This document shows positions 4,508 to 22,608 of a stretch of 64,000 nucleotides of DNA, in pieces. The notes beneath the pieces were generated by a model that was given only the letters and a program-made list of their open reading frames with translations, had not been told where the DNA came from and ran no database searches. Position numbers and translations under genes: made by a program. The DNA comes from Candidatus Solibacter usitatus. Lineage in GTDB: Bacteria; Acidobacteriota; Terriglobia; Bryobacterales; Bryobacteraceae. Position 1 is the stretch's first letter; each line of letters opens with the position of its first letter. Where the stretch lies: contig JACRBC010000136.1 of NCBI GenBank assembly GCA_016213245.1, positions 670 to 64,669 of the forward strand. The letters are read 5' to 3'.

Positions 4508-6211
4508 CTACTCAGACAGATGCGGCCGCGCGTGCAGGAGTCGCAAGCCGTTCAACGTGACGGCCAGGGTGGCGCCCATGTCGGCGGCGACGGCCATCCA
4601 CAGCGTGGCCGCACCGGCGAAGGCCGCCGCCAGGAAGAGGGCTTTGGCGGCGAGAGCGAAGACGATGTTCTGCCGGACGACGGCCAGCGCCCTGCGCGCG
4701 TGGTCGATCAGGAACAGCACGCGGCGCGGATCGTCGGTCATCAGGATGACGTCGGCGGACTCGCGGGCCATGTCGGCGCCGTGGCGGCCGAGGCTGATGC
4801 CCAGCGAGGCCAGCGCCAGGGATTCGGCGTCGGCGACACAATCGCCCAACATGCCGGCGCTGCCGTACTGCCGCAGCAGGGCGGCCATGGCGCCCGGCTC
4901 GGCGTCCCGCAGCCGGACCGGCTCGACGCCGCGGGCCCGCAGCGCTTCTTCGTAGCCTGGAAAGACGCCCTCGCCGTGCAGCGCCAGGACGGGCCGCCGC
5001 GCGGCCTCCTCCAGGAACGCTCCGCCCTTCACGAGCACGCCCTGCCCGGCCGCGCTGGCAAGCGCGGCGGTGATGCTCACCGGAGTGGAGATGACCAGAG
5101 CGCACGGGCACGAGATGAGCAGAATCACCATGCCCTGATAAAACCACTCGCCCCACGCTCCGCCCCGGAACAGGGGCGGCACGATCGCCACTGTGAAGGC
5201 GAGCAGCAGCACCGCGGGCGTGTAGCGACGGCTGAAACGCTCGATCAGGCGTTCGCTGGGCGAGCGGCGCGAGCGGGATTCCTCCACCATGCGCACCATG
5301 CGCGCCAGAGTGGTGTCCGAGGCCGGCCTCGTCGTGCGAATCTCCAGCGTGCCGCTCTCGTTGATGGCTCCGGCGAACACGGCGCCACCGGCCGACTTTT
5401 CCACGGCGACGGACTCGCCGGTGATCAGCGCCTGGTTGACCAACGAGGTCCCGCCTACTACTTCGCCATCGAACGGGATTCTCTCGCCCGGCCGCACGCG
5501 AATCAACGTGCCGGGCGAGACAGCGCCCACCGCGGCGCGGTGCTCATGCTCCCCGTGCACCACCCAGGCCTCGGCCGGCGCCACGGCCAGCAACCGGGTG
5601 ATGGCCCGCCGGGCCCGGGCCATGCTCCAGCTTTCCAGCCGCCCGGCGAGCGCGAAGAGGAACGCCAGCGTGGCGGCCTCGGTCCACTCGCCCAACGCCG
5701 AGGCCCCAGCCAGCGACAGCACCACCAACAGGTTCATGTCCGGCCGGAGCGCCCTCAATGTCCTCCAGGCCCGCGGCAAGGTGTGGCCGGCGCCGGCCAC
5801 CACGGCCACGGCAAAAAGAGCAAGCGATAGCGCAGGCATCCGCCTGTCGCCGTGCTGGTGCGCCAACAGCGCGGCCACTGACGCTGTGCCCTGCCATAGC
5901 TGCCAGCTCATGCCGGCAGCCAAGCCCAGCCCGGAAACCCACGTCAGCGCCTGCCGCCAGCGCTCTCGCCGCGTCGCCAGCCGTGCCGGGCCGGCCTGCC
6001 AGGGCTCGCAGCGCATCCCCACCGCCCGCACGACCTGCTCAATCGAGGCCGGCGTCACTTTGGCGGGCGCGTACTCGACGTCCATCCGAGCGTGCAACAC
6101 GTCGAACCGCAGGTCGCGCACACCCGCCACACGGCTGAGCCGCGCGCGCAGCAGGGAGACCTCCTCGGCGCAATCCATGCCGAGGACGCGATACTGAAGC
6201 GTTTTGTTAAT
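4508..6211 (-). CDS. Heavy-metal P1B-type ATPase-like protein lacking the DKTGT motif and N-domain
   Basis: HMA domain (GMDCAEE), DMNLLV, TGES actuator, SCPCALVISTP, ADMGATL; first ATG at 6178 but frame is open to ATT at 6211 behind a GAGGAG RBS. Confidence 0.85.
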   Translation of the reverse strand: MNKTLQYRVLGMDCAEEVSLLRARLSRVAGVRDLRFDVLHARMDVEYAPAKVTPASIEQVVRAVGMRCEPWQAGPARLATRRERWRQALTWVSGLGLAAGMSWQLWQGTASVAALLAHQHGDRRMPALSLALFAVAVVAGAGHTLPRAWRTLRALRPDMNLLVVLSLAGASALGEWTEAATLAFLFALAGRLESWSMARARRAITRLLAVAPAEAWVVHGEHEHRAAVGAVSPGTLIRVRPGERIPFDGEVVGGTSLVNQALITGESVAVEKSAGGAVFAGAINESGTLEIRTTRPASDTTLARMVRMVEESRSRRSPSERLIERFSRRYTPAVLLLAFTVAIVPPLFRGGAWGEWFYQGMVILLISCPCALVISTPVSITAALASAAGQGVLVKGGAFLEEAARRPVLALHGEGVFPGYEEALRARGVEPVRLRDAEPGAMAALLRQYGSAGMLGDCVADAESLALASLGISLGRHGADMARESADVILMTDDPRRVLFLIDHARRALAVVRQNIVFALAAKALFLAAAFAGAATLWMAVAADMGATLAVTLNGLRLLHARPHLSE

Positions 6212-6230
6212 GAGAACGTCTCCTCAATAA
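6207..6230. promoter_or_regulatory. AT-rich imperfect palindrome, candidate metalloregulator operator in divergent promoter
   Basis: TTAATGAG-AACGTCTC-CTCAATAA (arms 7/8 complementary), overlapping the RBS/start of the ATPase-like gene and abutting a minus-strand TACAAT -10 (6230-6235). Confidence 0.45.
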
Positions 6231-6278
6231 TTGTACGCTAGCCGTCGTGTGCCCGGATCGGGTACAAACAAGAGAAGC

Positions 6279-6626
6279 ATGGCGCACCACAGGATCCACG
6301 GCAACCATAGTCACGTTCACGGAGAGGACTGCGGCCACACCGCGATCCGGCACGACGACCACGTCGACTATCTCCACGAAGGGTGTCTGCACTCGCCGCA
6401 CGGCGACCATTTCGACGAATGCGTGCTGGAGGTTTCGGCGTCGAATCCGGCCGAGTGCACGCCGGAGCACCGGTGCCAGGGCCACGAGCCGTCGCACATC
6501 CATGCGCCCGGATGCGGCCACGAAGCGGTGCCCCACGGGGACCATGTCGACTACCTGGTGGACGGGCACCTGCACCATCCGCACGGCGGGCATTGCGACG
6601 ACCACGGCAAAGTGGACCTGGCGTGA
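6279..6626 (+). CDS. Small His/Cys-rich putative metal-binding protein
   Basis: 115 aa from ATG 6279; two copies of H-x-H-xxx-CGH-x-A-[IV]-x-H-x-DHVDYL-x-x-G-x-LH-x-PHG-x-H. Confidence 0.85.
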   Translation: MAHHRIHGNHSHVHGEDCGHTAIRHDDHVDYLHEGCLHSPHGDHFDECVLEVSASNPAECTPEHRCQGHEPSHIHAPGCGHEAVPHGDHVDYLVDGHLHHPHGGHCDDHGKVDLA

Positions 6627-9600
6627 CTCCGGGCGTCTTTATTGAACCTTTGTCCCTGCCCACCTTGATCCGGGACGCGGCGCCCGATGAAGCGGCATTG
6701 CTGGCTGTTTCGGCGCCGCCGCTGTCGTATGCCGGCCTGGGCGAGTTGATGGACCGGACCTCGGCGGCGCTGGCGCAGATGGGGATCGAGCACGACGATC
6801 GCGTCGCTCTGGTTGCTTCCAACGGCCCGGAGATGGCGGCGGCGTTCCTGGGCATTGCGGCGTCCTGCGGATGCGCGCCTCTGAATCCGGGCTACCGCGA
6901 AGAGGAGTTTCGATTCTATCTGGAGGACCTGAAGCCGTCGCTGCTGGTGATCGAACAGGGCATGGGAGAGGCGGCGGCGGCGGCGGCAGCCGCGCTGGGG
7001 ATCCGCGTCCGCCGGCTGTTGCCGGAGCCGCACAAGGGCGCGGGGTGGTTCGGGCTGGAGGGCGCCGGCGAAGGCGGCGAGCCGCGGTACGCTTCGCCGG
7101 AATCCACGGCGCTGTACCTGCACACGTCGGGGACCACGAACCGGCCCAAGCTGGTTCCGCTGACGCAGTACAACCTGCTCTGCTCGGCGGCGAATGTAGC
7201 GCGCACGCTGGCGCTGTCGCCGGCGGACCGCTGTTTGAACGTGATGCCGCTGTTCCACATCCACGGCCTGATCGCGGCCGTGCTGGCGTCGCTCTCGGCC
7301 GGGGCCTCAGTGGTGTGTTCGCCGGGTTTTCAGGTGACGCGATTCTTCGACTGGATGGATGAGTTCGAGCCTACGTGGTACACGGCGGTGCCCACCATGC
7401 ACCAAGTCATCCTGGAGCGCGCCGCGCTCGATCCAGAACGGGCGAAAAGGGCGCGCTTGCGGTTCGTGAGGTCATCTTCCGCCTCGCTGCCGCCGCAGGT
7501 GATGGAGAGGCTGGAGGAGGTGTTCCGGGCGCCCGTGGTGGAGGCTTACGGCATGACGGAAGCAGCGCATCAGATGGCCTGCAACCCATTGCCGCCGCTG
7601 GCGCGGAAGCCGGGCGCGGTGGGGCTTCCGGCCGGGCCTGAGGTGGCCGTGATGGACGCGGGCGGGCGGCTGCTGGCGCAGGGCGAGCGCGGTGAAATCG
7701 TGATCCGAGGCCCGAATGTAACGGCGGGGTATGAGGCCAATCCGGAGGCGAACCGCACAGCGTACTGTGAGGGCTGGTTCCGCACCGGAGACGAGGGTTA
7801 CTTCGATGCGGACGGGTATCTGTTCCTCACCGGCCGCCTGAAGGAGATGATCAACCGCGGCGGAGAGAAGATCGCGCCGCGCGAGATAGACGAAGCTCTG
7901 ATGGAACATCCGGCGGTGGCCCAGGCTCTGGCCTTCGGCGCGCCTGACCCGAAACTGGGGGAGGAGGTGGCCGCGGCGGTGGTGCTGAAGCCGGGCGCAT
8001 CCGCCAGGGAGAGCGAGCTTCAGGACTTTCTTGCGGCCAAACTGGCTGACTTCAAAATCCCCCGGCTGATCGTGTTTCTGGAGAAGATCCCGAAAGGCCC
8101 TACGGGCAAGATGCAGCGCGTCGGCCTGGCCTCGCGGCTGGGGATCGAGAACATCCATCATGCCCCGGCGGCGGCAGATGGCGAAGCGACGGCGCTGGCC
8201 GGCGCTCTGGCGGGCATCTGGACGGAGGTGCTGCGGCGCGACGACATCACAGCGCAGAGCCATTTCTTCGATTGCGGAGGGGATTCGATTCTGGCGGCGC
8301 AGGCGGTGGGGCGCGTGAACACCCTGACGGGGCGCGCGCTGAACGTAATGCACCTGTTCCGGGCGCCCACGCCGGGTGCGTTGGGGGCGTGGCTTGAGGC
8401 CAATCCCGGGGAGGCGCAGGCGCCGCCCGCTCCCGGGCCGTCCGCCGATCCGTCCAAGCTCAGCCCGGCGCAGGAGCGCATGCTGTTCCTGCACTCCTAC
8501 GAGGAGGAGCCGGCGCTGTACAACCGGCCCGCGTTGCTGCGGCTGCGCGGAGCGGTGGATGGGGAGGCGCTACGCGAGGCGCTGGACGATGTGGTGAAGA
8601 GGCACGAGGCGTTCCGCACCTGTTTCCAGGCGGAAGACAACGGCTGGTCGGCGAGTATCGCGGCGGCGGCTGCGTGTCCGTTGGAGACGCATGACTTGCG
8701 AGCGCGAGCCGATTCCCGACTGAAGACGGACGAGTTGACACGAGAGTTGCTGTCGCGCCCCTTCGATCTCTGCCAGCCGCCGCTGCTGCGCGTGGCGCTG
8801 CTGCAGGTGGAAGACGAGGAGTACCGGCTGGCGGTCTCGATGCACCACGTGATCTCGGACGGCTGGTCATCCCGTGTTTTTTTCCGCGACCTCTGCATTG
8901 CGTACGCAGCCCGGCGGGCCGGCGTGGCGCCCGTGTTTGAACCCTTGCGGGCGCGCTATGCCGACTACGTCGCCTGGCTCGAACAGAGGCTGTCCGGGGA
9001 ACGGCGCGGGCAGTTGGAGGCCTATTGGAAAGGGCGGTTGGAGGGTGCGCCGCCGCTGCTCGAAGTGCCTACGGACTTTCCGCGTCCGGCGCGCGCGACG
9101 TTCACGGCCGGCGTGGAGCGGCTGACGCTGCCCGCCCAACTGACCGCGCGGTTGCGGGAGATTGCGCGCGGCTCGGACGCGACGCTGTTCATGGTGCTGC
9201 TGGCCGGGTTCCAGGCTTTGCTGGCGCGGACCGCCGGCCTGACAGACGTGGTGATCGGCACGCCGTCGGCCGGCCGAACGCGGCCGGGATTTGAACCGCT
9301 GGCCGGGTTATTCGGCACGACTCTGCCGCTGCGCTGCGACCTCTCCGGCAATCCGTCGTTTCACGAGTTAGTAGTGCGCGCCCGCGAATGCTCACTGGAA
9401 GCGATCGCGCACCAGGACCTGCCCTTTGAAAAGCTGGTTGACGTCCTGCGCTTGCAGCGCAACCTGAGTCATCCTCCCCTGGTGCAAGTCACATTCCAGT
9501 TGCGCAATGTGCCCCTTGAACGTGCCGGGCTGTCCGGCTGCGCCACGGAGGAAATGGAGTGCCACTCCGGCCTCTCGCCGATGGATCTGAACCTTGAGGC

Positions 9601-11548
9601 GACAGAGACGCCTGACGGCTTGACCTGCCGGCTCGACTACCGGCGCGATCTCTTCCGGCCGGAGACGGCGCAAGCCTTGCTGGCCGGTTACAGGTCCCTG
9701 CTGACTTCGGCCGCGACGGACATTGATCGATGCCTCGGTGACCTTGCTCTCACCGGTGGTGACGACGCACACGAGAACTCCGAATTCAGGCGAGGCCCCG
9801 CGAGGGAGATCGGCCGGCCGATCGTCGACGACATTCTGGAAACCGCGCGGCGGAATCCCGGCAGAACTTTGTTCTGCTGCGCCGGACGGTCCTTGACCTA
9901 CGGCGCCTACCTGGACCTGGCCTTGCGCATAGCCGGCCGAATTCAGGACGCCGGCATCAGGCCCGGCTCACGCGTGGCGTTGCTGGCCGACCGTTGCGTC
10001 GAAGCGCCTACGTGGCTGCTCGGCATTTGGCTGGCGGGATGCTGCAGCGTGCCCATCGATCCCTCCGCTCCACCGAAGCGAGCCGCATTCATGCTGCGCG
10101 ATTCGGGCGCACAGGCCGTCTTGGTGCAGAGTTTACTCGCCGCGACGCTGGTGGAGGCCGCAGTGCCCGTCATCGCACTGGAGAGCCTGCCGCAGTGGCG
10201 TGCAGCGGTTTCGTGCGGAGAGATCCACCCAGGCGCCGGCGCATGCGTGGTGTACACATCGGGTTCCACCGGGCAACCGAAGGGCGTGGAGATCACGCAC
10301 AAGTCGTTGCGCAACGTCTTGGACTGGCTGGCGCGAGAGGTTGGACTGAGGCAGGACGACGTGTTCGTGAACGCGGCATCCTATGCATTTGACGCTTCCT
10401 TCGCGGACTACTACCTGGCTCCGGCGCTGGGCGCAGTGGTGCATATTCCGGACTCCGGCGAGATCCGGGATGGCCAGCGGCTGGCGGCACTGTTTGAGCG
10501 CGTGGACGCCACCTACACCAACGCCACGCCGACGACGTTTGTCACGATGCTGGAGAGCGGCTGGCGCGGCTGCCCGCGCTTGTCCGCGCTGAGCGGCGGG
10601 GAAGCGCTGACGCCGCAGGTGGCGGCGGCGCTGCTGCCGCGAGTGCGCACGCTGTGGAACGTGTATGGGCCGAGCGAGACCACCGACATCTCCGCCGCGT
10701 GCCGGGTGCTCTCCGCCGAACCGCCAATCTCAATCGGCCTGCCGGTGGATAACACGACGTTGCACGTCCTGGACAAGTGGGGCCGCCCTGCGATCGCCGG
10801 CTTTCCGGGAGAACTCCATATCAGCGGCGCGGGCGTGGCGGAAGGCTACATCAACCGGCCCGAACTGACCGCGGAACGGTTCGTATTCCTGGACACCCCA
10901 GCCGGCCCCATCCGCACCTACCGTACGGGTGATCTGGTGCGCAGCCTGCGGGCCGGCGGGCTTGAGTTTCTGGGCCGCATGGACCAGCAGATCAAGCTGC
11001 GCGGCCACCGCATCGAACTCGGCGAGATCGAAGCCGCCCTTCAGGTCTGTCCGGGCATCGCCGCCGCCGTCGTCGTCCTGCAAGAGCATCCCGCCGACCG
11101 CATCGCCGCGTTCTACTGTGGTACTGCTGCGCATGCGCCAACCCCGGACGAGCTTCGCGCCGCGCTCCGCGCCAGCCTTCCGGAGCACATGGTGCCGGCC
11201 CTGATCCGGAGGGTGGATGCGCTGCCGCTCACAACGAGCGGCAAGATCGACCGCAAGGCGCTGGCCGCGCTCGATGCCGGACAGGAAGGCCATTCAGGTG
11301 CGCGCGGCTTTACTCCATTGGAGTCCGACGTTGCAGCCTGTTTCACGGAAGTTCTCGCTCGCCGGGACATCGGCCCGGATGACGACTTCTTTGATCTCGG
11401 CGGCCATTCACTTGCGGCGGTCCGGCTGATGAACCGCCTCATGTCGCGCTTCGGCGCCGCGCCAACCATCCGGGAGTTCTTCTGCGCGGCTACCGTGCGC
11501 GATACCGCCGCTCGAATCCAAGCCAGAGAGAAGGAGACCGCTGGATGA
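6623..11548 (+). CDS. NRPS: acyl-CoA ligase-like (oxalate-CoA ligase-like) starter-T-C-A-T
   Basis: LHTSGTTNRPK, EAYGMTEAAHQ, FRTGD; T FFDCGGDS; C HHVISDGWS; A YTSGSTGQPKG, NVYGPSE, YRTGD, KLRGHRIELGEIE; T FFDLGGHS. GTG start at 6623 overlaps the upstream TGA (GTGA). Confidence 0.93.
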   Translation: MTPGVFIEPLSLPTLIRDAAPDEAALLAVSAPPLSYAGLGELMDRTSAALAQMGIEHDDRVALVASNGPEMAAAFLGIAASCGCAPLNPGYREEEFRFYLEDLKPSLLVIEQGMGEAAAAAAAALGIRVRRLLPEPHKGAGWFGLEGAGEGGEPRYASPESTALYLHTSGTTNRPKLVPLTQYNLLCSAANVARTLALSPADRCLNVMPLFHIHGLIAAVLASLSAGASVVCSPGFQVTRFFDWMDEFEPTWYTAVPTMHQVILERAALDPERAKRARLRFVRSSSASLPPQVMERLEEVFRAPVVEAYGMTEAAHQMACNPLPPLARKPGAVGLPAGPEVAVMDAGGRLLAQGERGEIVIRGPNVTAGYEANPEANRTAYCEGWFRTGDEGYFDADGYLFLTGRLKEMINRGGEKIAPREIDEALMEHPAVAQALAFGAPDPKLGEEVAAAVVLKPGASARESELQDFLAAKLADFKIPRLIVFLEKIPKGPTGKMQRVGLASRLGIENIHHAPAAADGEATALAGALAGIWTEVLRRDDITAQSHFFDCGGDSILAAQAVGRVNTLTGRALNVMHLFRAPTPGALGAWLEANPGEAQAPPAPGPSADPSKLSPAQERMLFLHSYEEEPALYNRPALLRLRGAVDGEALREALDDVVKRHEAFRTCFQAEDNGWSASIAAAAACPLETHDLRARADSRLKTDELTRELLSRPFDLCQPPLLRVALLQVEDEEYRLAVSMHHVISDGWSSRVFFRDLCIAYAARRAGVAPVFEPLRARYADYVAWLEQRLSGERRGQLEAYWKGRLEGAPPLLEVPTDFPRPARATFTAGVERLTLPAQLTARLREIARGSDATLFMVLLAGFQALLARTAGLTDVVIGTPSAGRTRPGFEPLAGLFGTTLPLRCDLSGNPSFHELVVRARECSLEAIAHQDLPFEKLVDVLRLQRNLSHPPLVQVTFQLRNVPLERAGLSGCATEEMECHSGLSPMDLNLEATETPDGLTCRLDYRRDLFRPETAQALLAGYRSLLTSAATDIDRCLGDLALTGGDDAHENSEFRRGPAREIGRPIVDDILETARRNPGRTLFCCAGRSLTYGAYLDLALRIAGRIQDAGIRPGSRVALLADRCVEAPTWLLGIWLAGCCSVPIDPSAPPKRAAFMLRDSGAQAVLVQSLLAATLVEAAVPVIALESLPQWRAAVSCGEIHPGAGACVVYTSGSTGQPKGVEITHKSLRNVLDWLAREVGLRQDDVFVNAASYAFDASFADYYLAPALGAVVHIPDSGEIRDGQRLAALFERVDATYTNATPTTFVTMLESGWRGCPRLSALSGGEALTPQVAAALLPRVRTLWNVYGPSETTDISAACRVLSAEPPISIGLPVDNTTLHVLDKWGRPAIAGFPGELHISGAGVAEGYINRPELTAERFVFLDTPAGPIRTYRTGDLVRSLRAGGLEFLGRMDQQIKLRGHRIELGEIEAALQVCPGIAAAVVVLQEHPADRIAAFYCGTAAHAPTPDELRAALRASLPEHMVPALIRRVDALPLTTSGKIDRKALAALDAGQEGHSGARGFTPLESDVAACFTEVLARRDIGPDDDFFDLGGHSLAAVRLMNRLMSRFGAAPTIREFFCAATVRDTAARIQAREKETAG

Positions 11549-14500
11549 GCGATTGCAACCGGGAGCGAAGCGGGGCGAACGCCGGAGTTGAGCTGAGTTT
11601 TGCCCAGCAGCGGATGTGGATTGCGGAGCAACTTCAGCCCGGCGGCGCCGCCTATCACATCCCCAGCGCCTGGCGTGCGGCCGGGGAGCTGCGCGTAGAG
11701 GCGCTGCGCCGAGCGTTTCAGACCGTATGCCGGAGGCACTCCGCGCTGCGCACGGTGATTCGGCCGGCCGAAGGCACACCCTGGGCCCAGGTGCTCGATG
11801 AGCCGCCGGCCGTTGTCGAAGCCGATTGGACTGCGCTGTCCCCAGCGGAGGTTCAGCAGGCCGTGGAGCGCCAATCGTGGCGGCCTTTTGATCTGGCCGG
11901 CGAGGCGCCCGCGCGCTGCCTGCTGGCCCGCCTGGCCGGCGGCGACCACCTGCTGCTGTTCCTGTTTCACCACATCGCGTTTGACGGGTGGTCTTGGTCC
12001 ATTTTCAATTGCGAGCTTTCAGAGGCATACGCTGCTGCATGCCGTGGAGAGGAACCGGAGCTGGAGCCGCTGGCATTGCAATACTCCGAATATGCGGCGG
12101 GCCAGCGCCAGTCGCTCACGCCGGAGGTAATCGCGCAAATGGCGCAGCCCTGGATCAAGCGCCTCGCAGGCGCGCCACGGTTGCGCTTATCCACGCGCCA
12201 GGGCACGGGCGCCGGCAAGGAAAGTACGGACGGGGAATTGCTGTTCACCATGAGCGCAGCGGCCGCCGAAGCGGTGACGGCGTTCGCGCGCACTCACCGC
12301 ACCACGCCGTTCGCCGTGCACCTGGCGGCCGTTCAGGCGCTCCTGGCGCGCTACTCAGGACAGGCCGACTTCTGCATCGGCGTGCCGTTCGCCAACCGTG
12401 AGCCGGAGGTGGAAGGTCTGATCGGCTTCTTTGTGAATACGCTGGCCTTCCGCGCCCGGTTGGAGGACGACCCTACCTTCCGCCAGGCTGTCGGGCGCAC
12501 CGCTTCCGACACTCTCGACGCGCTGAGTGAAGGCCGACTGCCCTTCGAACAACTAGTGGAGCGGATGCAGCCGGATCGCACCCTGGGCGAGAATCCGCTG
12601 TTCGGCGTGTTGTTCGCTTACCAGAATTTCCCGAGCACTCCCTTGTCGCTCTGTGGTGTAAGCCTGGAGCAGATAGAAGTCCTGTCGCCGGCGTCCGTCG
12701 TGGAGCTGAGCCTCTCGCTGACGCCGTCGCCTGGCGGGCTGCTGGGGACCATCCGGTATTCCGCGGCCCTGTTCGACCGGCCGTGGGTGGAGAGATTCGC
12801 CGGGCACTATTCACGGCTGGTTGAGACGTGGCTGAGCGCGCCGGATTTGCCGCTGTCGAAGGTGGAGTTCATCTCAGGGCAGGAGAAAGAGCGGCTTCTG
12901 GCGCTCGGCCGCGGGCACTGCGGCGACTATCCGAAACTCCCCATCCATCGCATCTTCGAGGAGCAGGCTGCCCGGCGGCCCGAGGCGATCGCATTGCGTT
13001 CGGGGCAGATCACCGAGACCTACGCGGATCTCAACGCGCGTGCCAATCAACTGGCCCGGCAGTTGGTCGATGCCGGCATAGCGCCCGGCAGCGTGGTCGG
13101 CGTGCTGATGGACCGGTGTATGGAGATGGTCGTCTGCTGGTTGGCCGTGCTGAAAGCGGGCTGCGCTTATCTACCGCTGGAGCCGGCCGATCCGGCGGCG
13201 CGGCTGGCCGGACAATTAGCCGATTGCGGGGTTGGCGCGCTGATCGCACACCAACCGGTGCCCGGCGCGGTCCGCGCAGCGGCTGCGTGTTGCATTTTTC
13301 CCACGGGCGGCCGCAGCGGGGAGGATACGCAGAACCTCAGCATCGAACCGTCCATCGGGCAGGCGGCGTGCATCATGTTCTCCTCGGGCTCGACGGGCAA
13401 GCCCAAAGGCGCCGCCATCCCGCATCGCGCCATTCTCCGGTTGCTGTTTGACAACGGCTTCGCCGAGTTTTCCAGCGGCGACACGTTCCTTTTCATGGCG
13501 CCGCCCGCTTTCGATGCCAGCACCCTGGAGGTATGGGGGCCGTTACTCCACGGCGGAACCTGCGCCGTACTTTCCCCCGGGAGGGTTTCGCTTCCGGCGG
13601 TGTCCGCCGCCGTGCGCAACAACGGGGTCACGGCCATGTGGATCACCTCGTCTCTCTTCAACGCGCTGATCGATGAGACGCCAGAGGCGCTACGCCCTGT
13701 GCGCCTGATCATGACCGGAGGCGAAGCGCTATCGGCAGGGCATGTGGCGAAGGCCCTGCGGCTGCTTCCCGACACGAGATTAATGAACGGCTACGGTCCT
13801 ACCGAGAACACGACGTTCACCACCTGTTGGCAGATTCCGAGAGACTTTCCGGAGACCGCCTCCGGCGTTCCCATCGGCACGCCCATCGCCAACACGCGCG
13901 TCTACGTCCTCGACGCCGCCCGGCAGCTCGTGCCGGAGGGCGTGGCGGGCGAACTCTACGCCTCCGGCGACGGTGTGGCGCTGGGTTACCTCGGACTTGC
14001 GGAGATGACTGCCGAGCGATTCCTTGCGGACCCGTTCCATCCAGGTACTCTCATGTACCGCACGGGCGACATCGTGCGCTGGAACGGATCGGGCACATTG
14101 GAATTCGTCGGCCGCGTCGACGATCAGGTGAAGATCCGCGGGCATCGCATCGAACCGGGCGAAGTGGAGGCGGCGCTTGCCGGACACCCGGCCGTTTCCC
14201 AGGCGGCCGTGATCGTGCGCACGGACCGGCGAGGCGAAAAAGCGTTGGTTGCCTACTACACGCTGCGGCCGGGCGGTAGCGCCGGCACGGGGGAGTTGCG
14301 GGAGTTTCTCCGCCTCCGTCTTCCCGAATTCATGCAGCCGGCCGGCTTGGTGGCACTGGGGAGTTTTCCGCTCTTGCCTTCCGGCAAGATCGACCGCGCG
14401 GCACTTCCCGAGCCTGAACAGGCAAGAGCGCCTGGCGATGCGCCGCGGCAGGGACGGGAAGCGGAGATCGCCGCGGTGTGGAAGCGGGTGCTCGGCATGC

Positions 14501-15474
14501 AAAACATCGTCCGCACCGACAATTTCTTCGACCTCGGCGGGCATTCGCTGGCGGCGTTGAGGGTGGTGTCGGCGATCGAACGTGAATTGAAGCTGCGGGT
14601 TACATTGGCGGATCTCTTTTCGGCGCCCGTGCTTGCGGACCTGGCCGCCCGCCTGGACTGCAACTCTACCGATCAGCGCACCCTGGTGCCGGTGCGGTCT
14701 GAAGGTTCGCTGACGCCAATCCTGACCCTTTCCGCAGGACCGCGCTTCCGGCAACTGGCTGCCCGGCTCGGTGACCAGCGGCCCGTGCACTGGCTTCCGG
14801 CAATCGATGCGACACTGCTGCCCCATCCCTGCCGCTGCGAGGACATCGCGGCCTGGTATGTGCGCCTGCTGATGGGGCAACGACCCTCCGGCCCGTGGAT
14901 CCTGAGCGGCTGGTGCCTTGCTGGCACGCTGGCATTTGAGATTGCGCGCCAGCTCGAGCCGCACGGTCGCGGCGCGGTCCTTCTCCTCGACGCTCCCGGA
15001 CCGAATCAACGAGCCGGAGTTTCGCAACTGCAGTCCCTGGGCAACCTACTTGCCCGCCTCGCTTATCACGGGCACGCGATGATGCGCGGCGAACGTGGAC
15101 CCTTGATCCCATACGTATTGGAGCGAATCAGGACCATTCGGGAGCGGCGCGAATTGTTGCAGTTCGCCCGGACATACGAGCAGTCTCTCCGCTCCGGCGG
15201 GGCGCAGCCTGAATCGGTGGATGAACAACTCCTGTCCAACTATGCGGCCCTTCGGTATACGCCGCCCTCGCCGCTGGGCTGGCCAGTCCTGCTGGTGCAC
15301 GCCAGGGACCGGCATGGGCTGCCGCAGTCCAAGCCGGACGCGGGCTGGGCGCCCCATGCCCCGAGGCTGATTGTGGAATGGGCTGACGGAGACCATGGCA
15401 CCATGTTTGAGGAGCCGTTCCTCACCAGCCTTGCCAAGGTGGTCCGCACTTGGCTGGACGGCCTTCCGGATTGA
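11545..15474 (+). CDS. NRPS termination module C-A-T-TE (A domain probably Val)
   Basis: C HHIAFDGWS; A FSSGSTGKPKG, NGYGPTENTTF, hand-read pocket DALWMGGTFK (Val-type); T FFDLGGHS; TE GWCLAG...LLDA...GDHGTM; ATGA overlap with the first NRPS. Confidence 0.93.
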   Translation: MSDCNRERSGANAGVELSFAQQRMWIAEQLQPGGAAYHIPSAWRAAGELRVEALRRAFQTVCRRHSALRTVIRPAEGTPWAQVLDEPPAVVEADWTALSPAEVQQAVERQSWRPFDLAGEAPARCLLARLAGGDHLLLFLFHHIAFDGWSWSIFNCELSEAYAAACRGEEPELEPLALQYSEYAAGQRQSLTPEVIAQMAQPWIKRLAGAPRLRLSTRQGTGAGKESTDGELLFTMSAAAAEAVTAFARTHRTTPFAVHLAAVQALLARYSGQADFCIGVPFANREPEVEGLIGFFVNTLAFRARLEDDPTFRQAVGRTASDTLDALSEGRLPFEQLVERMQPDRTLGENPLFGVLFAYQNFPSTPLSLCGVSLEQIEVLSPASVVELSLSLTPSPGGLLGTIRYSAALFDRPWVERFAGHYSRLVETWLSAPDLPLSKVEFISGQEKERLLALGRGHCGDYPKLPIHRIFEEQAARRPEAIALRSGQITETYADLNARANQLARQLVDAGIAPGSVVGVLMDRCMEMVVCWLAVLKAGCAYLPLEPADPAARLAGQLADCGVGALIAHQPVPGAVRAAAACCIFPTGGRSGEDTQNLSIEPSIGQAACIMFSSGSTGKPKGAAIPHRAILRLLFDNGFAEFSSGDTFLFMAPPAFDASTLEVWGPLLHGGTCAVLSPGRVSLPAVSAAVRNNGVTAMWITSSLFNALIDETPEALRPVRLIMTGGEALSAGHVAKALRLLPDTRLMNGYGPTENTTFTTCWQIPRDFPETASGVPIGTPIANTRVYVLDAARQLVPEGVAGELYASGDGVALGYLGLAEMTAERFLADPFHPGTLMYRTGDIVRWNGSGTLEFVGRVDDQVKIRGHRIEPGEVEAALAGHPAVSQAAVIVRTDRRGEKALVAYYTLRPGGSAGTGELREFLRLRLPEFMQPAGLVALGSFPLLPSGKIDRAALPEPEQARAPGDAPRQGREAEIAAVWKRVLGMQNIVRTDNFFDLGGHSLAALRVVSAIERELKLRVTLADLFSAPVLADLAARLDCNSTDQRTLVPVRSEGSLTPILTLSAGPRFRQLAARLGDQRPVHWLPAIDATLLPHPCRCEDIAAWYVRLLMGQRPSGPWILSGWCLAGTLAFEIARQLEPHGRGAVLLLDAPGPNQRAGVSQLQSLGNLLARLAYHGHAMMRGERGPLIPYVLERIRTIRERRELLQFARTYEQSLRSGGAQPESVDEQLLSNYAALRYTPPSPLGWPVLLVHARDRHGLPQSKPDAGWAPHAPRLIVEWADGDHGTMFEEPFLTSLAKVVRTWLDGLPD

Positions 15475-15482
15475 AACCGAGT

Positions 15483-16178
15483 ATGTCCAGCGACTGGCAG
15501 CCACGACTTCCGCCACGCATTCGCGTGGCTCTCATCGACGTGGATGAGCCGGGCGCGCGGGTGTTGGACGATCCCGCGCTGATCAGCCCCGAGGAGGCCG
15601 CGCGCGCGCGCCGCTTTCGTGGAGAGAGCTTGGAGCGCCGCTACCGGCGCGCACACGCCGCGCTGCGGCTGCTGCTGTCCAGGGAAACCGGATGCGCGCC
15701 GGCGCTGCTGCCGATCTCCACGCGCGACGGCGGCAAGCCGTTTCTGCCGGGCTCCACAGTGTCGTTCAACCTGTCGCACTCCGGCCCTCTCGCCGCCGTG
15801 GCGCTGGCCAGCGGCTTGGAGGTAGGCGTCGACGTCGAAGCGCCGCGCCGGCTGCACGGCGACGCGCTCAGCCTGGCGGCGCGCTTCTACCATCCGGAAG
15901 AGTGCCGCATGCTGACGGCGGTGCCGGGACGGGGAAGGGAAGCGGCGTTCCTCAGGCTGTGGACGGCCCGGGAATCGCTGGTGAAGGCGCTCGGCGCCGG
16001 GCTGGACCAAATGCCGGGCGACTTCAATGCCGCGCCGCTGCTGGAAGGAGCGCAGGCAGTGGAGTGGGGCGGGTGGACGGTGCGCGTGATGCCCGCGCCC
16101 GCAGGAGCGTTCGCGGCCGTGGCGGCGCCGGGCGCCGGGTGGGGCTATGAACTGGTTTCGCCGTTCTGGCTGGCCTGA
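15483..16178 (+). CDS. 4'-phosphopantetheinyl transferase (Sfp type)
   Basis: GKP, FNLSHS, VGVDVE, LWTARESLVKALGAGL motifs; alternative TTG start at 15471 overlapping the NRPS stop. Confidence 0.92.
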   Translation: MSSDWQPRLPPRIRVALIDVDEPGARVLDDPALISPEEAARARRFRGESLERRYRRAHAALRLLLSRETGCAPALLPISTRDGGKPFLPGSTVSFNLSHSGPLAAVALASGLEVGVDVEAPRRLHGDALSLAARFYHPEECRMLTAVPGRGREAAFLRLWTARESLVKALGAGLDQMPGDFNAAPLLEGAQAVEWGGWTVRVMPAPAGAFAAVAAPGAGWGYELVSPFWLA

Positions 16179-17017
16179 GCGCCGCGCCGCAGTCCGGCGG
16201 CGAACCGGCTGGCCTGTTCGAAGTCACTCTCCAGGCTGCCGCTATTCAGGCGCTCCCGGAGCTGCGCCCATTCAGCGGCGAACAGGTCGAGGGCGTCGAG
16301 GATCGCATCGCGGTTGGTGTCCAGAATGTCTCTCCAGATCTCCCAGGCGCTCAGCGCCAGCCTGGTGGAATCGACCAGGCCGGGACCGGCGGCGGCGGCG
16401 ATGGAAGAGGCGTCCGGATGCGATGCCAGGGTCGAAGCCAGCGCCGTGGAGAGCAATTGAGGCAGGTGCGAAGAACAGGCCACGATGGCGTCATGTTCCT
16501 GCGGAGACGCCACCCGTTGTTGCGCACCGATGGCCTGCAACCAGCCGCAGAACTCATTTGCGGCCGGGGTTTGCAGAGCGGCGGGTTCCAGCGGCGTGAG
16601 CAGGTAGGGCCGGCCTTTGAACAGGCCGGCCTCGGCCGCGCCCACCCCCCGCGACTCCTTGCCGGCCATCGGATGGCCGCCAAGGAACTGCACGCGGCGC
16701 AAAGCGGCGCCGGCCTCGCAGATCATCGACTTCGTGCTGCCGGCGTCGGTGACCAGCGCGCCGGGCTTGACAATGCCATCGAGACGCGGGATCAGGTCGA
16801 GGATCGAGCGGATGGGGCCGGCGAGGTAGACCAAGTCCGCCTGCGCGCACGCCTCCTCCAGCGTCGCGCCGGCGTCGATGACGTTCAGCTCCAGCGCCTG
16901 CCGGATGGTGCGTTCGGAACTGACGCCGAGGATCCGTCCCGCAAAGCCGGCCTGGCGTAGCGCAAGCGCGAACGAGCCGCCGATCAGCCCGACTCCGGCG
17001 ATGACTACTGTCTGCAT
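16145..17017 (-). CDS. tyrA: Prephenate/arogenate dehydrogenase
   Basis: GVGLIGGS Rossmann motif, TDAGSTK, GGHPMAGKE, HDAIVACSSHLPQ. Confidence 0.93.
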   Translation of the reverse strand: MQTVVIAGVGLIGGSFALALRQAGFAGRILGVSSERTIRQALELNVIDAGATLEEACAQADLVYLAGPIRSILDLIPRLDGIVKPGALVTDAGSTKSMICEAGAALRRVQFLGGHPMAGKESRGVGAAEAGLFKGRPYLLTPLEPAALQTPAANEFCGWLQAIGAQQRVASPQEHDAIVACSSHLPQLLSTALASTLASHPDASSIAAAAGPGLVDSTRLALSAWEIWRDILDTNRDAILDALDLFAAEWAQLRERLNSGSLESDFEQASRFAAGLRRGAQASQNGETSS

Positions 17018-17024
17018 GGTGCGC

Positions 17025-18053
17025 TCACACGCTCCTGCCCACGGCCGACGCGATCAGTTTGAGTTGTGCGACCAGCTCGGAGAACTGCTCCGGCCGGAGC
17101 GCCTGCGCGCCCTCGCTGGCGGCGTGGTCGGGGTCCGAGTGGACCTCCAGCAGCAGGCCGTCGGCGCCGGCGGCCACGGCGGCGCGCGCCATGGGGACGG
17201 CCATGTCGCGCCGCCCGGTGGCGCGCGACGGGTCGGCCACCACGGGCAGGTGCGAGAGCTTGTGGATGGCCGGGATGGCGGCGATGTCCATGGTGTGGCG
17301 GGTGAAGGTCTCAAACGTCCGGATGCCGCGCTCGCAGAGGATCACGTTGTAGTTGCCGCCGGCCAGAACGTGATCGGCGGAGACCAGCAGCTCCTCCACC
17401 GTGGCGGCGATGCCGCGTTTGAGCAGCACGGGCCGCGCGCACTTGCCCAGCGCGCGCAGCAGCAGGTGGTTCTGCATGTTGGCGGCGCTCACCTGGAGCA
17501 GGTCGGCCTGTGCTTCCAGCTCCGGAATGCGCGAAGCGTCCGAGACCTCGGTGACCACGAACAGCCCGAAGAGGTCGGCGACGCGGCGGACCATTCTGAC
17601 CCCCTCGGCGTCCAGGCCGCGCGGGCCGTTCAGGGAGGTTTCAGATGGATGTGCGCCGGCCCGCAGAAAACGCGCTCCGGCGCGGGCCGCCAGTTCGGCG
17701 GTGCGCGTGAGCTGCTGCTCGTTCTCGACGCTCGATGGGCCGGCCATCAGCACCACCTGCGGGCCACCGATCTCCACGCGTCCGGCACGCTCGCGCTCGA
17801 ACCGCACCACCGTCCCCTCCGGCTTGAAGCCCCGGCTGGACAGCTTATACGGCGACATCACCCGGCGGCACTGCTTGACGCCCTCCATCACGTTGAACTC
17901 GTTGGGGTCGACCAGTTCCGCCGGCCCCACGGCGCCGAGCACCGTGTGCACGACGCCCGTGGAACGGTGCACGGAGAAGCCCAGCGAATCCAGCTTGCCG
18001 ATGACCTGCTCCACCTGCTCTTCGGTGGCGCCCTGCTCCATGACGATGATCAT
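17025..18053 (-). CDS. Type I-beta DAHP synthase homolog with degenerate active site
   Basis: N-terminal regulatory domain plus barrel motifs [17 protein letters not shown]; but AGPSSVE, GAHPSETS, QVSAANMQN, DPSRATG, SEGAQ replace catalytic motifs. Confidence 0.88.
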   Translation of the reverse strand: MIIVMEQGATEEQVEQVIGKLDSLGFSVHRSTGVVHTVLGAVGPAELVDPNEFNVMEGVKQCRRVMSPYKLSSRGFKPEGTVVRFERERAGRVEIGGPQVVLMAGPSSVENEQQLTRTAELAARAGARFLRAGAHPSETSLNGPRGLDAEGVRMVRRVADLFGLFVVTEVSDASRIPELEAQADLLQVSAANMQNHLLLRALGKCARPVLLKRGIAATVEELLVSADHVLAGGNYNVILCERGIRTFETFTRHTMDIAAIPAIHKLSHLPVVADPSRATGRRDMAVPMARAAVAAGADGLLLEVHSDPDHAASEGAQALRPEQFSELVAQLKLIASAVGRSV

Positions 18054-18352
18054 TGCGCCTTCTCCTTTGCCATGCGCTCGCGTTGCAGCGTGCGCATCTC
18101 GTCGATGATGCGTTCAAAAAGGCGGCGCACGGCGCCCGCGGACAGCGGCCCGCCGTTGCCCGACAGCACGTTTTGGAACACCATGTCCTCGCGTTTCGGC
18201 TCGTAGATCGGCAGCGCCGCGACCTTCTTGATGTCGCCGATCTTCTCCACTACTTTGGCGCGCTGGTTCAAGAGCTCGAGGATGCGCAGGTCGACTTCGT
18301 CGACGGACTTGCGCAACAGGTCGAGCGCCGCCTGGGCTTCTTCGTTGGTCAT
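18050..18352 (-). CDS. Chorismate mutase (AroQ/type II)
   Basis: LRKSVDEVDLRILELLNQRAKVVEKIGDIK...PIYEPKRE; ATG at 18352 overlaps trpA stop. Confidence 0.92.
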   Translation of the reverse strand: MTNEEAQAALDLLRKSVDEVDLRILELLNQRAKVVEKIGDIKKVAALPIYEPKREDMVFQNVLSGNGGPLSAGAVRRLFERIIDEMRTLQRERMAKEKAQ

Positions 18353-19149
18353 GACTGTCCGCTCAACTCCCGGGTGAATGCCTCCAGGCGCGCCGCCAGG
18401 TCCGGCGAAGCGCCGTGGCGCTCGATCAGGCGCATGAACGCGCTGCCTACCACCACGCCGTCGGCGTAGCGGCCCACGGCTTCGACATGCTCGCGCCTGG
18501 AGATGCCGAAGCCCACCGCCAGCGGCAACGCGGTGTGCCGCCGCAGGCTCGCGATCAGTTCCTCGACTCCGCCGGAGACCGAGTCCTGCTCGCCGGTGAC
18601 GCCGCTTCGTGAGACGACGTAGACAAAGCCGGTGGAATGCCGGGCCACCAGGGCCAGGCGCCGCTCCGTGCTGGTGGGCGCGGCGAGGAAGACCGTGTCC
18701 AGCCCGTGCCGCCGCAGGGTTTCGGTGGTGTCGCCGGCTTCTTCCACACTGAGGTCGGTGAGCAGGCAGCCGTCGACGCCCGCCTGGCGCGCATCGGCGC
18801 ACAGCTTGTCGAAGCCGTAGCGCAGCAGCGGGTTCAGGTAACTGAACAGGACGATGGGGATGTCGCTGCGCTTGCGGATGCCGGCGGCGATCTCCAGCAC
18901 GCGCGCCACCCTGGCGCCGGCCTTCAGAGCGCGGTCCGAGGCGCGCTGGATCACGGGGCCGTCGGCGATGGGGTCGGAGAACGGCACGCCTAGTTCGAGC
19001 ACGTCCGCTCCGCCGCGCTCCATGGCCAGCGCCAGCTCTTCGGTCGCGCCGGGGGAAGGGTCGCCGGCGGTGATGTAGGCCACCAGCGCGGGCCGGCCGG
19101 CGGCCTTGCAGGCGGCGAAGCGTTCGGCGATGCGTTCGCTACTTGGCAT
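18349..19149 (-). CDS. trpA: Tryptophan synthase alpha subunit
   Basis: [34 protein letters not shown]. Confidence 0.97.
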
Positions 19150-20353
19150 CGGGGTTGTCCAGTGCGGGGAAGTTCTCCCGGTAGATGTCTGTGTCCTTGT
19201 CGCCGCGGCCGGAGAGGTTGATCAGGAAGATCTCGCCGTTCGCCGCCGGCGCGCGGCGCAAGGCTTCTGCCACGGCGTGGGACGATTCCAGCGCGGGAAT
19301 GATGCCTTCGGTGCGCGCCAGCGTCGCGGCCGCCTGGAGTGCGTCCGCGTCGGAGGCGGAGACATACTCGGCGCGGCCCTGGTCGTGCAGCCAGGCGTGC
19401 TCGGGGCCGATCAGCGCGTAATCGAGCCCCGCCGAAACCGAGTGCGTCAGCGACACTTGGCCGTCGTCGTCCTGCAACAGGTAGCTGTAGGCCCCTTGCA
19501 GCACGCCCGGCGAGCCGCCGGCGAAGCGCGCCGCGTGCTGGCCCAGTTCCAGGCTGCGGCCTCCCGCCTCCACGCCCACCAGCTTCACGCGCTCATCGGG
19601 GATGAAGGCCGTGAAGATGCCGATGGCGTTGGAGCCGCCGCCGACGCAGGCGAAGATGGTGTCCGGCAAACGGCCAGTGCGAGCCAGGATCTGGCCGCGC
19701 GCCTCGTCGCCGGTGCAGCGGTGAAAGTCGCGGACCATCATCGGATAAGGATGCGCGCCCAGCGCCGAGCCGAGCAGGTAATGCGTCGAGGAGATGTTCG
19801 ACACCCAGTCGCGCATGGCCTCGCTGACGGCGTCCTTCAACGTCCGGCTGCCGGAGGTGACGCTCTCCACGCGCGCGCCCAGCAGTCGCATGCGGAAGAC
19901 GTTCAGCCGCTGGCGGCGCATGTCCTCCTCGCCCATGTAGACGACGCACTCCAGGCCGAACAGCGCGCAAACGGTGGCCGTGGCCACGCCGTGCTGCCCC
20001 GCGCCGGTCTCGGCGATGATGCGCCGCTTGCCCATGCGGCGGGCCAGCAGGATCTGCCCCAGGCAGTTGTTGATCTTGTGCGCGCCGGTGTGCAGCAGGT
20101 CTTCGCGCTTGATGAAGATGCGCGCCCCGCCCAGGTTCGCGCTCAACCGCTTCGCTTCGTATAGCGGCGTGGGCCGGCCGGCGAAGTTCGCCAGCAGGTC
20201 TTTCAATTCGGCCTGAAACGCCGGATCCCGCTGGGCTTGCGTGTAGGCCGTTTCCAGTTCTTCCAGCGGCGCCATCAGGATCTCGGGGACATATCGCCCG
20301 CCGTATGGCCCGAAGTGGCCCCTCTCGTCCGGCAACTCTGTGCTTTTGCTCAT
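19139..20353 (-). CDS. trpB: Tryptophan synthase beta subunit
   Basis: [41 protein letters not shown]. Confidence 0.98.
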
Positions 20354-20949
20354 TCCTTATCCGTCTCGCGCACGGCGCGGATGAACTCCGCCACCCGCGC
20401 GTGGTCTTTCACTCCGGGGCGCTGCTCCAGGCGGGAGCAGGCGTCGACGCCCCACGACCGCACCAGCCGGATGGCGGTGGCGACGTTGTCAGGCCCAAGG
20501 CCTCCGGCCAGGATCACCCTGCCGGGCAGTCCGCACGCTAGCGACCAGTCGAAGGTCCTTCCGGTGCCGCCGCGCTGCTGGCCGGCGGGCGTATCGATCA
20601 GGACGGCCTCCGCGCCGCACTCTTCCATTCTCTCTCGAAGCCGCTCCAGCGTGGCCGGCCAGGCGCGCCACCAGCGGATGCCGGGCGGGTAATCCAATGA
20701 GCCGTGTACCTGCGCCACGTCCAGGCCCGCGATGCGGGCGGCTGCCTCGATATCGGCCGCGCCCTCGTCCACGAACACGCCGGCCTTCAACACAGGGGGC
20801 AGGCGGTCGATGATGGCGCGCGCCGCTTGCGGCGCGATGTATCGCGGGCTCCCGGGATAGAAGTTGAAACCCAGCGCATCGGCGCCGGCTTCAATTGCCT
20901 GCAGGGCGTCGTCCAGCGTCGTGATGCCGCAGATCTTGACGAGTGTCAT
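20350..20949 (-). CDS. trpF: Phosphoribosylanthranilate isomerase
   Basis: [29 protein letters not shown]. Confidence 0.96.
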
Positions 20950-21734
20950 CGGCCGGTGAGCGCCTTCAACGCCGCGGCGGGGTCGCCGGATTTCATCAGA
21001 TGCTCGCCTACCAGGAAGGCGTGAAAACCGGCCGAGGAGAGCCGTTCGACGTCGGCGCGTGAATGGATGCCGCTTTCTGCGACTTTCAGAATGGCTTCCG
21101 GCATCAGCGCCGCCAGGCGCTCGGAGGTCCCCAGCCGCACTTCGAAGCTGCGCAGGTCGCGGTTGTTCACGCCGACGATCGACGCGCCGGACTCGAGCGC
21201 CACCGCAAGCTCGCTCTCATCGTGAACTTCAACCAGCGCCGCCATGCCGTAGGACTCGGCCAGCACCCGGAAGCGCTCCATCTCGTCCCGCGAGAGGATG
21301 GCCGCGATCAGCAGAATGGCGTCGGCGCCCGAGCCGGCCGCCTCGATCACGTCGAGCTCGTCGACGGTGAAATCCTTGCGCAGGACGGGCAGATGCGCAA
21401 TGGCGCGCGCCACCTTCAGGTCGCTCAGCGACCCCTGGAAGAACTCCTTATCGGTCAATACCGACAGGGCGGCGGCGCCGCCGGCGAAGTACTGCTGCGC
21501 CTGCAAGCCCGGATTGAAGTCGGCCGCCAGCACGCCCTTGCTGGGCGACGCTTTCTTGATCTCGGCGATGATGGCCGGCTGGCGCTTCAACAGGCCGGCG
21601 CGGAAGTCCCGGCGCTGTTTGGCCTGGAAGGAGGCGTTCTGCTCCATGCTTCGGCGCGACTTCGCCTTCTCGGCGACCTCAATGCGCTTGCGGTCGACAA
21701 TACGGGCGAGGATGTCCGGGATTGCGGCTGCCAT
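20946..21734 (-). CDS. trpC: Indole-3-glycerol phosphate synthase
   Basis: IAEIKKASPSKG, LSVLTD, LRKDF, GVNNRDL, AESGI; start moved to ATG 21734 (MAAAIPDILARIV). Confidence 0.96.
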   Translation of the reverse strand: MAAAIPDILARIVDRKRIEVAEKAKSRRSMEQNASFQAKQRRDFRAGLLKRQPAIIAEIKKASPSKGVLAADFNPGLQAQQYFAGGAAALSVLTDKEFFQGSLSDLKVARAIAHLPVLRKDFTVDELDVIEAAGSGADAILLIAAILSRDEMERFRVLAESYGMAALVEVHDESELAVALESGASIVGVNNRDLRSFEVRLGTSERLAALMPEAILKVAESGIHSRADVERLSSAGFHAFLVGEHLMKSGDPAAALKALTGR

Positions 21735-21868
21735 CTGGGGAACCTCTACGATAACAGACTCGGCGAGGCGCGCCGTGTTCTCACAACTACCGCCATCTCG
21801 TCGCTGGCTCACCTTGCGACCCCCGCGACCGGAGGACCTCGTCATCGTGGCAAATCCAAGCTCTCCCT

Positions 21869-22606
21869 CTACTCGCGCGCAGCCTCGGCCGCGATGTGCC
21901 CGGCGAACGACGTGACAAACGTCTTCAAGCTCGTCATCTCGGAAAGCTCGTTGTATTCGCTGCTCGTCACCGCCGTCCGTGGTGAGGTGATCACAGCAGC
22001 CGTCGTGTAAAGCTGTTCCTGCACGAGCCTCTGGCAAAGGAGGTCATATCGCTTCAGGTAAGAAGCCCCCTGAAACTCTGGAAAGACAGGAAAGTGCGGC
22101 GACCGATCCCGAACGGGCGCCCGCGAGCGGGGCGCATCCTCAACCAGCATCAGCCAAGCGACGAACGGCCGAGGGTGCTTCCCAAACGCACCCTCCCGAT
22201 ATGCCGTCCACACATCGTGCGACGTACCAACGGCCTCTTCGGTTCGATTATTGAAGTTGTTCCCGAACGATGGCCCAACCTGGCTCTTGAGCTCGATGGC
22301 AGCAATCAAGCGGCCCTCGTTGAGCACAAGTAGATCCCACAGCTTCGTCGGACGGAAGTATCCGGGCAGCGTCAAGAGCGCTCTACGCCTATGAATCGCA
22401 GCATGCGTCAGGCCATTGGCCTGGACCAGATCAATCACGAGGGCGATGAACCCGTCCATGTTCTTTCCGGCCGTGACGCCGGCCCGCTCACCCTGATCGA
22501 CCGTTCCCGCTTCGGCCTGTTTTTTCCGCGCCTTCTCCCGGTTCCCCCAGAACGCCTTGACGGCTTCACGGGCCTTCCTGTCGTAGTCCGTCAGATCAAT
22601 CGCCAT
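21869..22606 (-). CDS. Type II restriction endonuclease, PaeR7I/XhoI family (CTCGAG expected)
   Basis: [50 protein letters not shown] recognised as PaeR7I/XhoI-like. Confidence 0.9.
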
Positions 22607-22608
22607 GG

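Follow-up and report, generated by a model that had tools for sequence, protein, structure and literature searches.

A predicted oxalate-loading starter domain at the head of a nonribosomal peptide synthetase from Candidatus Solibacter usitatus

Which acid begins the product of a nonribosomal peptide synthetase (NRPS) whose first domain resembles an oxalate-CoA ligase? Here, we address this question for a two-gene NRPS encoded in a 64,000-nucleotide stretch of Candidatus Solibacter usitatus DNA (the window). We propose, with a probability of roughly 0.7, that the first adenylation domain, A1, adenylates oxalate and loads it onto the adjoining carrier domain T1, and that condensation then gives a predicted N-oxalyl-Xaa-Val product.

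Pfam searches and motif checks resolve the two genes into the order A-T-C-A-T / C-A-T-TE, followed by a gene for a 4'-phosphopantetheinyl transferase (PPTase) (Table 1). This is the organization of a modular NRPS: an A-T loading module opens the line, the T-domain serines and the HHxxxDG motifs are intact, and a PPTase is present. The nrps1 reading frame extends over 6383-11548, and its likely start is the GTG at 6623, in overlap with the stop codon of the His-rich gene before it; the gene-caller start, 9 codons downstream, gives a shorter version (P0001, 1632 aa). The starts of nrps2 and the PPTase gene each overlap the stop of the preceding gene. In the 1641-aa protein, Pfam detects AMP-binding at residues 21-370, AMP-binding_C at 421-496, Condensation at 612-1044, and two PP-binding stretches. 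A preliminary description of this DNA had quoted seven motifs, all of which are real and lie in one frame at 7118-7873, and the A-T-C fusion that it reported is borne out: the GGDS motif of T1 (8276-8287) and the HHVISDG motif of C1 (8843) lie directly behind A1. Because orthologs of the same architecture are found in two further genomes of the genus (G006 and G008), the A1-T1-C1 fusion is no assembly artefact. A 2256-base contig of sequencing run X1 also covers 7244-9499 (A1-T1-C1) with 0 differences, and this run may be the window's own source. The nearest named homolog, from an Acidobacteria bacterium, is 87% identical over A1.

Table 1. Features of the NRPS locus and its surroundings (window coordinates)
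Feature	Position	Strand	Remarks
nrps1	6623..11548	+	1641 aa, A1-T1-C1-A2-T2
A1, oxalate-CoA-ligase-family adenylation domain	6665..8137	+	phmmer, pocket residues, AlphaFold/Foldseek
T1 carrier domain	8180..8413	+	GGDS motif, Ser at 8285-8287
C1 condensation domain	8456..9754	+	HHVISDG intact; nearest to elongation-type C domains
A2 amino-acid adenylation domain	9845..11272	+	Gly-code clade, rewritten pocket DAANLGVDI
T2 carrier domain	11330..11518	+	GGHS
nrps2	11545..15474	+	1309 aa, C2-A3-T3-TE
C2 of nrps2	11587-12900	+	
A3 of nrps2	12955-14388	+	code DALWMGGTF
T3 of nrps2	14464-14655	+	
TE of nrps2	14722-15459	+	GWCLAG: Cys replaces catalytic Ser
PPTase	15450..16178	+	ACPS family; HetI-like below cut-off
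His/Cys-rich small protein, flanking	6279..6626	+	115 aa; in 16/16 genus genomes, so not cluster-specific
Heavy-metal P1B-type ATPase	4508-6178	-	no DKTGT phosphorylation motif
Promoter-like site	6204-6231	+	upstream of the His-rich gene
Weak terminator-like hairpin	6617-6637	+	overlaps the His-rich stop and the first NRPS codons
Ordinary aromatic amino acid operon	16145-22037	-	trpC, trpF, trpB, trpA, chorismate mutase, DAHP synthase, prephenate dehydrogenase
XhoI-type restriction endonuclease and Eco57I-type methylase	21869-24333	-	lower-GC stretch beside the trp operon

Judged by sequence, fold and pocket, A1 is assigned to the oxalate-CoA ligase (AAE3/Pcs60) family and not to the FAAL or aryl-acid ligases. 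First, the four top PDB matches in phmmer searches are all oxalyl-CoA synthetases, namely AAE3 (430.8 bits; E 6.7e-128, far beyond chance), LsOCS (417.9 bits), and Pcs60 (381.1 and 276.6 bits). The best non-oxalate match is a putative long-chain ligase at 209.4 bits, followed by MatB at 206.6 bits, and no FAAL-labelled chain is among the matches listed (best 60 of 127). The preliminary description had likewise set A1 apart from fatty acyl and aryl-acid ligases, and A1 does not cluster with either in these PDB ranks (142-156 bits for the aryl-acid starters CahJ, PchD, and EntE vs 381-431 bits), which serve in place of a tree with AAE3, Pcs60, FAAL, or Fum10 rows. Second, with an AlphaFold model of A1 (mean pLDDT 89.7), Foldseek ranks 1-7 are all oxalyl-CoA synthetases, in the same order as in phmmer. 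The best NCBIfam model for A1, FadD7 (NF004511), scores 407 bits, under its curated cut-off of 650, and A1 is not counted as a member. Third, according to the available portion of the source, the pocket of AAE3 consists of Val215, His216, Cys288, Ser289, Ala313, Met314, His319, and Lys500, of which Ser289, His319, and Lys500 contact oxalate and Ser289 and His319 are specific to oxalyl-CoA synthetases (PMC8905533). The counterparts in A1 are Ile213, His214, Ser285, Ser286, Gly310, Met311, His316, and Lys496; five of the eight are identical, and all three oxalate-contacting residues (Ser286, His316, and Lys496) are kept. The A1 pocket residues also include His212. None of the six other adenylation-type matches in the host genome has an A1-type pocket.

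The pocket also bears on the alternative that A1 loads a different small acid, such as glyoxylate, oxamate, or malonate, or, like Fum10, a larger polycarboxylic acid, in which case the product would carry another N-acyl cap. Three of the eight pocket residues differ from AAE3 (V>I, C>S, and A>G), each new side chain being smaller than, or similar to, the one in AAE3. Fum10, presumably of the same subfamily as A1, is described in the parts of the literature available to us as a CoA-ligase-type enzyme supplying a tricarboxylic acid to a T-C protein. LsOCS itself also takes glyoxylate, with an efficiency of 1.8e3 vs 1.1e5 per M per s for oxalate, and its preference for oxalate is 61-fold relative to glyoxylate and about 10,000-fold relative to malonate in the accessible text of the report (PMC8905533). 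However, the A1 pocket is identical at 10/10 positions scored to that of stand-alone ligases linked to PanE and OxlT, and the three changes from AAE3 recur in the PanE-linked bacterial enzymes. Moreover, the pocket Ser/His is gone from some diverged carrier-fused relatives (L024, L025, P0002, and P0007), which look different; it appears that a switch to another substrate shows in the sequence, and A1 bears no such mark. We, therefore, consider it unlikely that A1 loads an acid other than oxalate.

The genomic surroundings of the stand-alone relatives point in the same direction as the pocket. Neighbourhoods were compared in the best 80 of 574 genome loci, drawn from 11 of the collection's 64 parts and including related genomes that are not independent counts; 9 of these loci encode a carrier fusion, to which L092 adds a frameshifted one. 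By tblastn, 60 of the 80 loci contain a PanE-family gene, often directly downstream of the ligase, as against 0 of the 10 carrier-fused loci. An OxlT antiporter gene is present in 4/80, and in Methylobacterium bullatum panE, the ligase gene, and oxlT share one locus. PanE had been named as a synthetase in the preliminary description; this is wrong, as the consulted sections of two papers identify PanE of M. extorquens as an oxalyl-CoA reductase (PMC9485241, PMC8411744). The neighbouring genes, assigned to PanE by family membership, would then encode oxalyl-CoA reductases, which supports the idea that the stand-alone copies act on oxalate. Counting against it, panE is absent from the loci of the stand-alone copies in related Acidobacteriota genomes (L018-L023 and L028). 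Nine stand-alone loci (L058, L061, L063, L078, L080, L087, L090, L102, and L103) have a gamma-glutamyltransferase-family gene that, we assume, could encode an oxamate amidohydrolase.

A FastTree phylogeny comprised 86 rows: 35 drawn from the 120 long proteins (P0002 and P0007 were left out), 9 from fused loci, 25 from the 56 PanE-linked copies, a further 11 stand-alone copies, 4 additional loci, and 2 outgroups. In this tree, a single branch with support 0.902 parts 36 stand-alone copies from all carrier-fused ones, L092 being counted as fused. The root lies on long branches, and the order of events is not readable from this tree. With this branch between the fused copies and the stand-alone ones, plain inheritance from the PanE-linked clade does not account for the substrate of A1.

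If A1 activates oxalate, the acceptor has to be considered, since oxalate could be freed as oxalyl-CoA, or carrier-bound oxalyl could be reworked (to a formyl or reduced group) by an enzyme encoded elsewhere, such that the product would not be N-oxalyl. The ligase sequences are neutral in this respect: CoA users and carrier users are not told apart by any residue change, no reliable marker emerged from 56 PanE-linked vs 127 fused copies, and the acceptor is not readable from sequence. Thirteen positions are conserved in the 56 PanE-linked copies and not in the 127 fused ones, and differences between the two groups include positions 237, 239, 442, and 444; these were rejected as markers of a CoA-to-carrier switch since AAE3, a CoA user, has the window's residue at 239 and 442. 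By contrast, the domains behind A1 argue for transfer to the carrier and onward condensation. The GGDS motif of T1 is intact, the best PDB matches of T1 are NRPS carriers, and the order A1-T-C occurs in 109 of the 120 best long homologs (phmmer parse). C1 matches elongation C domains at 264-205 bits (TycC 2JGP, 205 bits), far above CDA-C1 at 57 bits; we take TycC to represent the elongation type and CDA-C1 the starter type. Neither a ThDP enzyme nor a reductase is encoded within the cluster, and oxc is below cut-off in the genome. A product diverted to oxalyl-CoA or reworked on the carrier is, thus, very unlikely.

The later modules would set the remainder of the product. The code of A2 is common to P0003, P0004, P0006, and G008, and its nearest non-ortholog relatives carry DILQLG-type codes, which we take to specify Gly. 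Asp330 of A2 raises, we presume, Dap or Dab as a candidate substrate; against it, no SbnB or Dat gene scores above cut-off in three genomes, and the nearest A2 relatives carry Gly-type codes. The A3 code presumably specifies Val. The Cys at the nucleophile position of the TE is shared with AB3403, and the Asp and the His motif are present.

The observations comprise the family and fold of A1, its pocket residues, the order of the domains, the intact motifs of T, C, and TE, and the neighbouring PPTase gene; from these we infer the following route. The PPTase would prime T1-T3. Using ATP and oxalate, A1 would form oxalyl-AMP and pass the oxalyl group to the pantetheine thiol of T1 in place of CoA. 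C1 would couple oxalyl to the amine of the amino acid selected by A2, giving oxalyl-Xaa-S-T2, in which Xaa is probably small and not Gly; C2 would add Val to give oxalyl-Xaa-Val-S-T3, and the Cys-type TE would release the product, most simply as a linear acid. The oxalate starter put forward in the preliminary description, thus, finds support in sequence, fold, pocket, and neighbourhood, with loading itself a prediction. N-oxalyl amino acids are mimics of 2-oxoglutarate, and N-oxalylglycine is an inhibitor. The latter appears as a co-crystal ligand in the portion of the report available to us (PMC12141560). A role of the product as a metal-chelating or 2-oxoglutarate-mimicking metabolite is a tentative suggestion, and we regard it as doubtful.

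Oxalate supply is the main gap in the N-oxalyl reading and would favour loading of another acid. No oxalate source was found in the host genome (78.6% complete), in which we detected no ICL/PEPM-family gene, PanE2-type gene, or frc, and no oxc or OxlT gene above cut-off; within the cluster there is no lyase or transporter gene. G006 and G008 also have no detected PanE2-type gene, and each has one off-cluster ICL/PEPM gene; that of G006 scores under the prpB cut-off and has LeuC/LeuD/LeuB-type (isopropylmalate-type) genes next to it. From the ORFs around ten carrier-fused and two stand-alone loci, a subset of 40 was selected, and none of them gave a hit to the ICL/PEPM or ThDP families.

Local history bears on a further alternative, in which the cluster, though intact, is silent or in decay and yields no product. 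An A2 ortholog is present in 3/16 genomes of the genus. In these three (the host genome G000, G006, and G008), the NRPS genes lie between the His-rich gene and the prephenate dehydrogenase gene, with G008 split over two contigs. G007 has the PPTase gene alone at this site, whereas five other genus genomes have neither NRPS nor PPTase there, and the four read out contain a different 220-aa gene instead. The restriction of the NRPS to three of 16 genomes, the PPTase gene retained without NRPS genes in G007, and the weak hairpin over the first codons would suit a silent cluster. However, the 8.8 kb of the cluster contain zero stops or frameshifts, and G006 and G008 keep all catalytic motifs and both A-domain codes although their domains are 47-87% identical to those of the window. 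We regard a cluster without a product as the least probable of the alternatives.

Two flanking genes were considered separately. The His/Cys-rich protein has repeated HxDHVDYL motifs and no Pfam or NCBIfam match, and is likely metal-binding. The P1B-type ATPase has LHGEG, LDRQG, LGRAG, or LAREG where DKTGT is expected in 6/6 genus copies aligned, and the copies of the window and G006 are about 115 aa shorter than the others (556 vs 664-671 aa); the ATPases are possibly a pseudo-ATPase lineage. If the His-rich gene and the ATPase gene were cluster parts, they would suggest a metallophore; they were rejected as evidence for one, because the His-rich gene occurs in 16/16 genomes and the NRPS in 3/16.

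How widespread are A1-type domains? Among long homologs (proteins of 902-2872 aa; best 120 listed, the window's own included), the A1-type pocket is kept in 117/120; the search total of 2900 takes in ordinary multi-A NRPSs and should not be read as the size of the family. The second A domains of these 120 proteins have many different codes, and the starter is, therefore, combined with many amino acids. Named hosts among the long homologs listed are Bryobacteraceae, Electrothrix, Armatimonas, cyanobacteria, Binatus, and Poribacteria. For near-length proteins, 7999/8000 candidates match at E <= 1e-80, and among the best 120 the pocket is present in all; the protein extends further at the C terminus in 33, and JGI gives the name oxalate--CoA ligase to 6. 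A-T and A-T-TE architectures also occur among the relatives. The A1 domain type is, thus, common and not rare in environmental genomes. We put at about even odds the broader proposal that A1 is one of many unrecognized oxalyl-carrier-protein ligases, a lineage apart from the catabolic ligases that feeds hundreds of NRPS lines as well as A-T and A-T-TE proteins in many phyla, with products forming a family of N-oxalyl peptides that would mimic 2-oxoglutarate or chelate metals, and with N-oxalyl amino sugars perhaps made as well.

Individual relatives differ in architecture and setting. L015, L016, L017, L032, and L100 encode single-module A-T-TE proteins with an intact oxalate pocket and no C domain, and in L015 and L100 a methyltransferase gene adjoins. 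The A-T-TE proteins of L024 (7897-10440) and L025 (7962-10514) have a replaced pocket (HLQRIGGL), lie beside a tannase/feruloyl esterase gene, and probably activate another acid. P0016 and P0062 have the order A(Val-type)-T-A1-T-C-A-T. Here the oxalate-type domain lies inside the protein and no C domain was detected ahead of it, which hints at an oxalamide link. Oxalate-ligase-type proteins in L027 (6701-11293, A-T) and L026 (6980-10863) are encoded beside hexapeptide acyltransferase, glycosyltransferase, and DegT aminotransferase genes, a neighbourhood in which an N-oxalyl amino sugar is a possible product.

Acid-loading starters are known; what would be new is oxalate loading by an AAE3-type domain in cis. 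We found no description of this, or of any oxalate-loading NRPS, in the literature searched (titles and abstract openings, with most subscription journals outside), which does not prove absence. If our proposal holds, oxalate joins the NRPS starter units as a new member. Common annotation pipelines give such proteins no label beyond amino acid adenylation or acyl-CoA synthetase, and the predicted caps would be missed. The plant toxin beta-ODAP is an N-oxalyl amino acid, and a bacterial family of such compounds would interest chemists and ecologists alike. For NRPS engineering, an A-T didomain that loads oxalate would offer a simple building block.

AtAAE3 (PDB 5IE0/5IE2/5IE3), LsOCS (6QJZ), and Pcs60 (8AFF) share with A1 the fold, at 38-45% identity in Foldseek alignments, and the three oxalate-contacting residues; however, they are free enzymes acting on CoA, whereas A1 is fused to T and C domains in an NRPS. 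Closer still are bacterial stand-alone relatives of the type of the Methylobacterium oxalyl-CoA synthetase, which we take to be named Oxs and which works with PanE2; these are 57-63% identical to A1 and have the same ten-residue pocket code. Such ligases are catabolic and lie beside panE, as in the Oxs-PanE2 assimilation module, whereas the carrier-fused loci, including the window's cluster, are without panE and separate on the tree. FAAL-ACP and aryl-acid loading modules load a non-amino acid first to give an N-acyl cap. So does SidE in fumarylalanine synthesis, as far as the available text describes it (PMC4283610), and the same is proposed for A1. Nevertheless, SidE, FAAL-ACP, and aryl-acid modules differ from A1 in ligase family and substrate. 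In fumonisin biosynthesis, the accessible parts of three reports describe Fum10 as a CoA-ligase-type enzyme that acts as the A domain for the T-C protein Fum14 with a polycarboxylic acid (PMC7711896, PMC3705289, PMC12821873). Fum10/Fum14 are likened to the A1 line by function, not sequence, and differ in being fungal and separate proteins that use tricarballylate and form an ester bond. The grass-pea route to beta-ODAP, in which LsOCS and beta-ODAP synthase act in turn, resembles the chemistry proposed for A1 in that oxalate is activated and then joined in an amide with an amino acid, according to the portion of the report consulted (PMC8905533). It differs in that oxalyl-CoA is used together with a BAHD acyltransferase, and neither a carrier nor a C domain nor an assembly line takes part, whereas A1 is predicted to hand the same activated acid to an NRPS.
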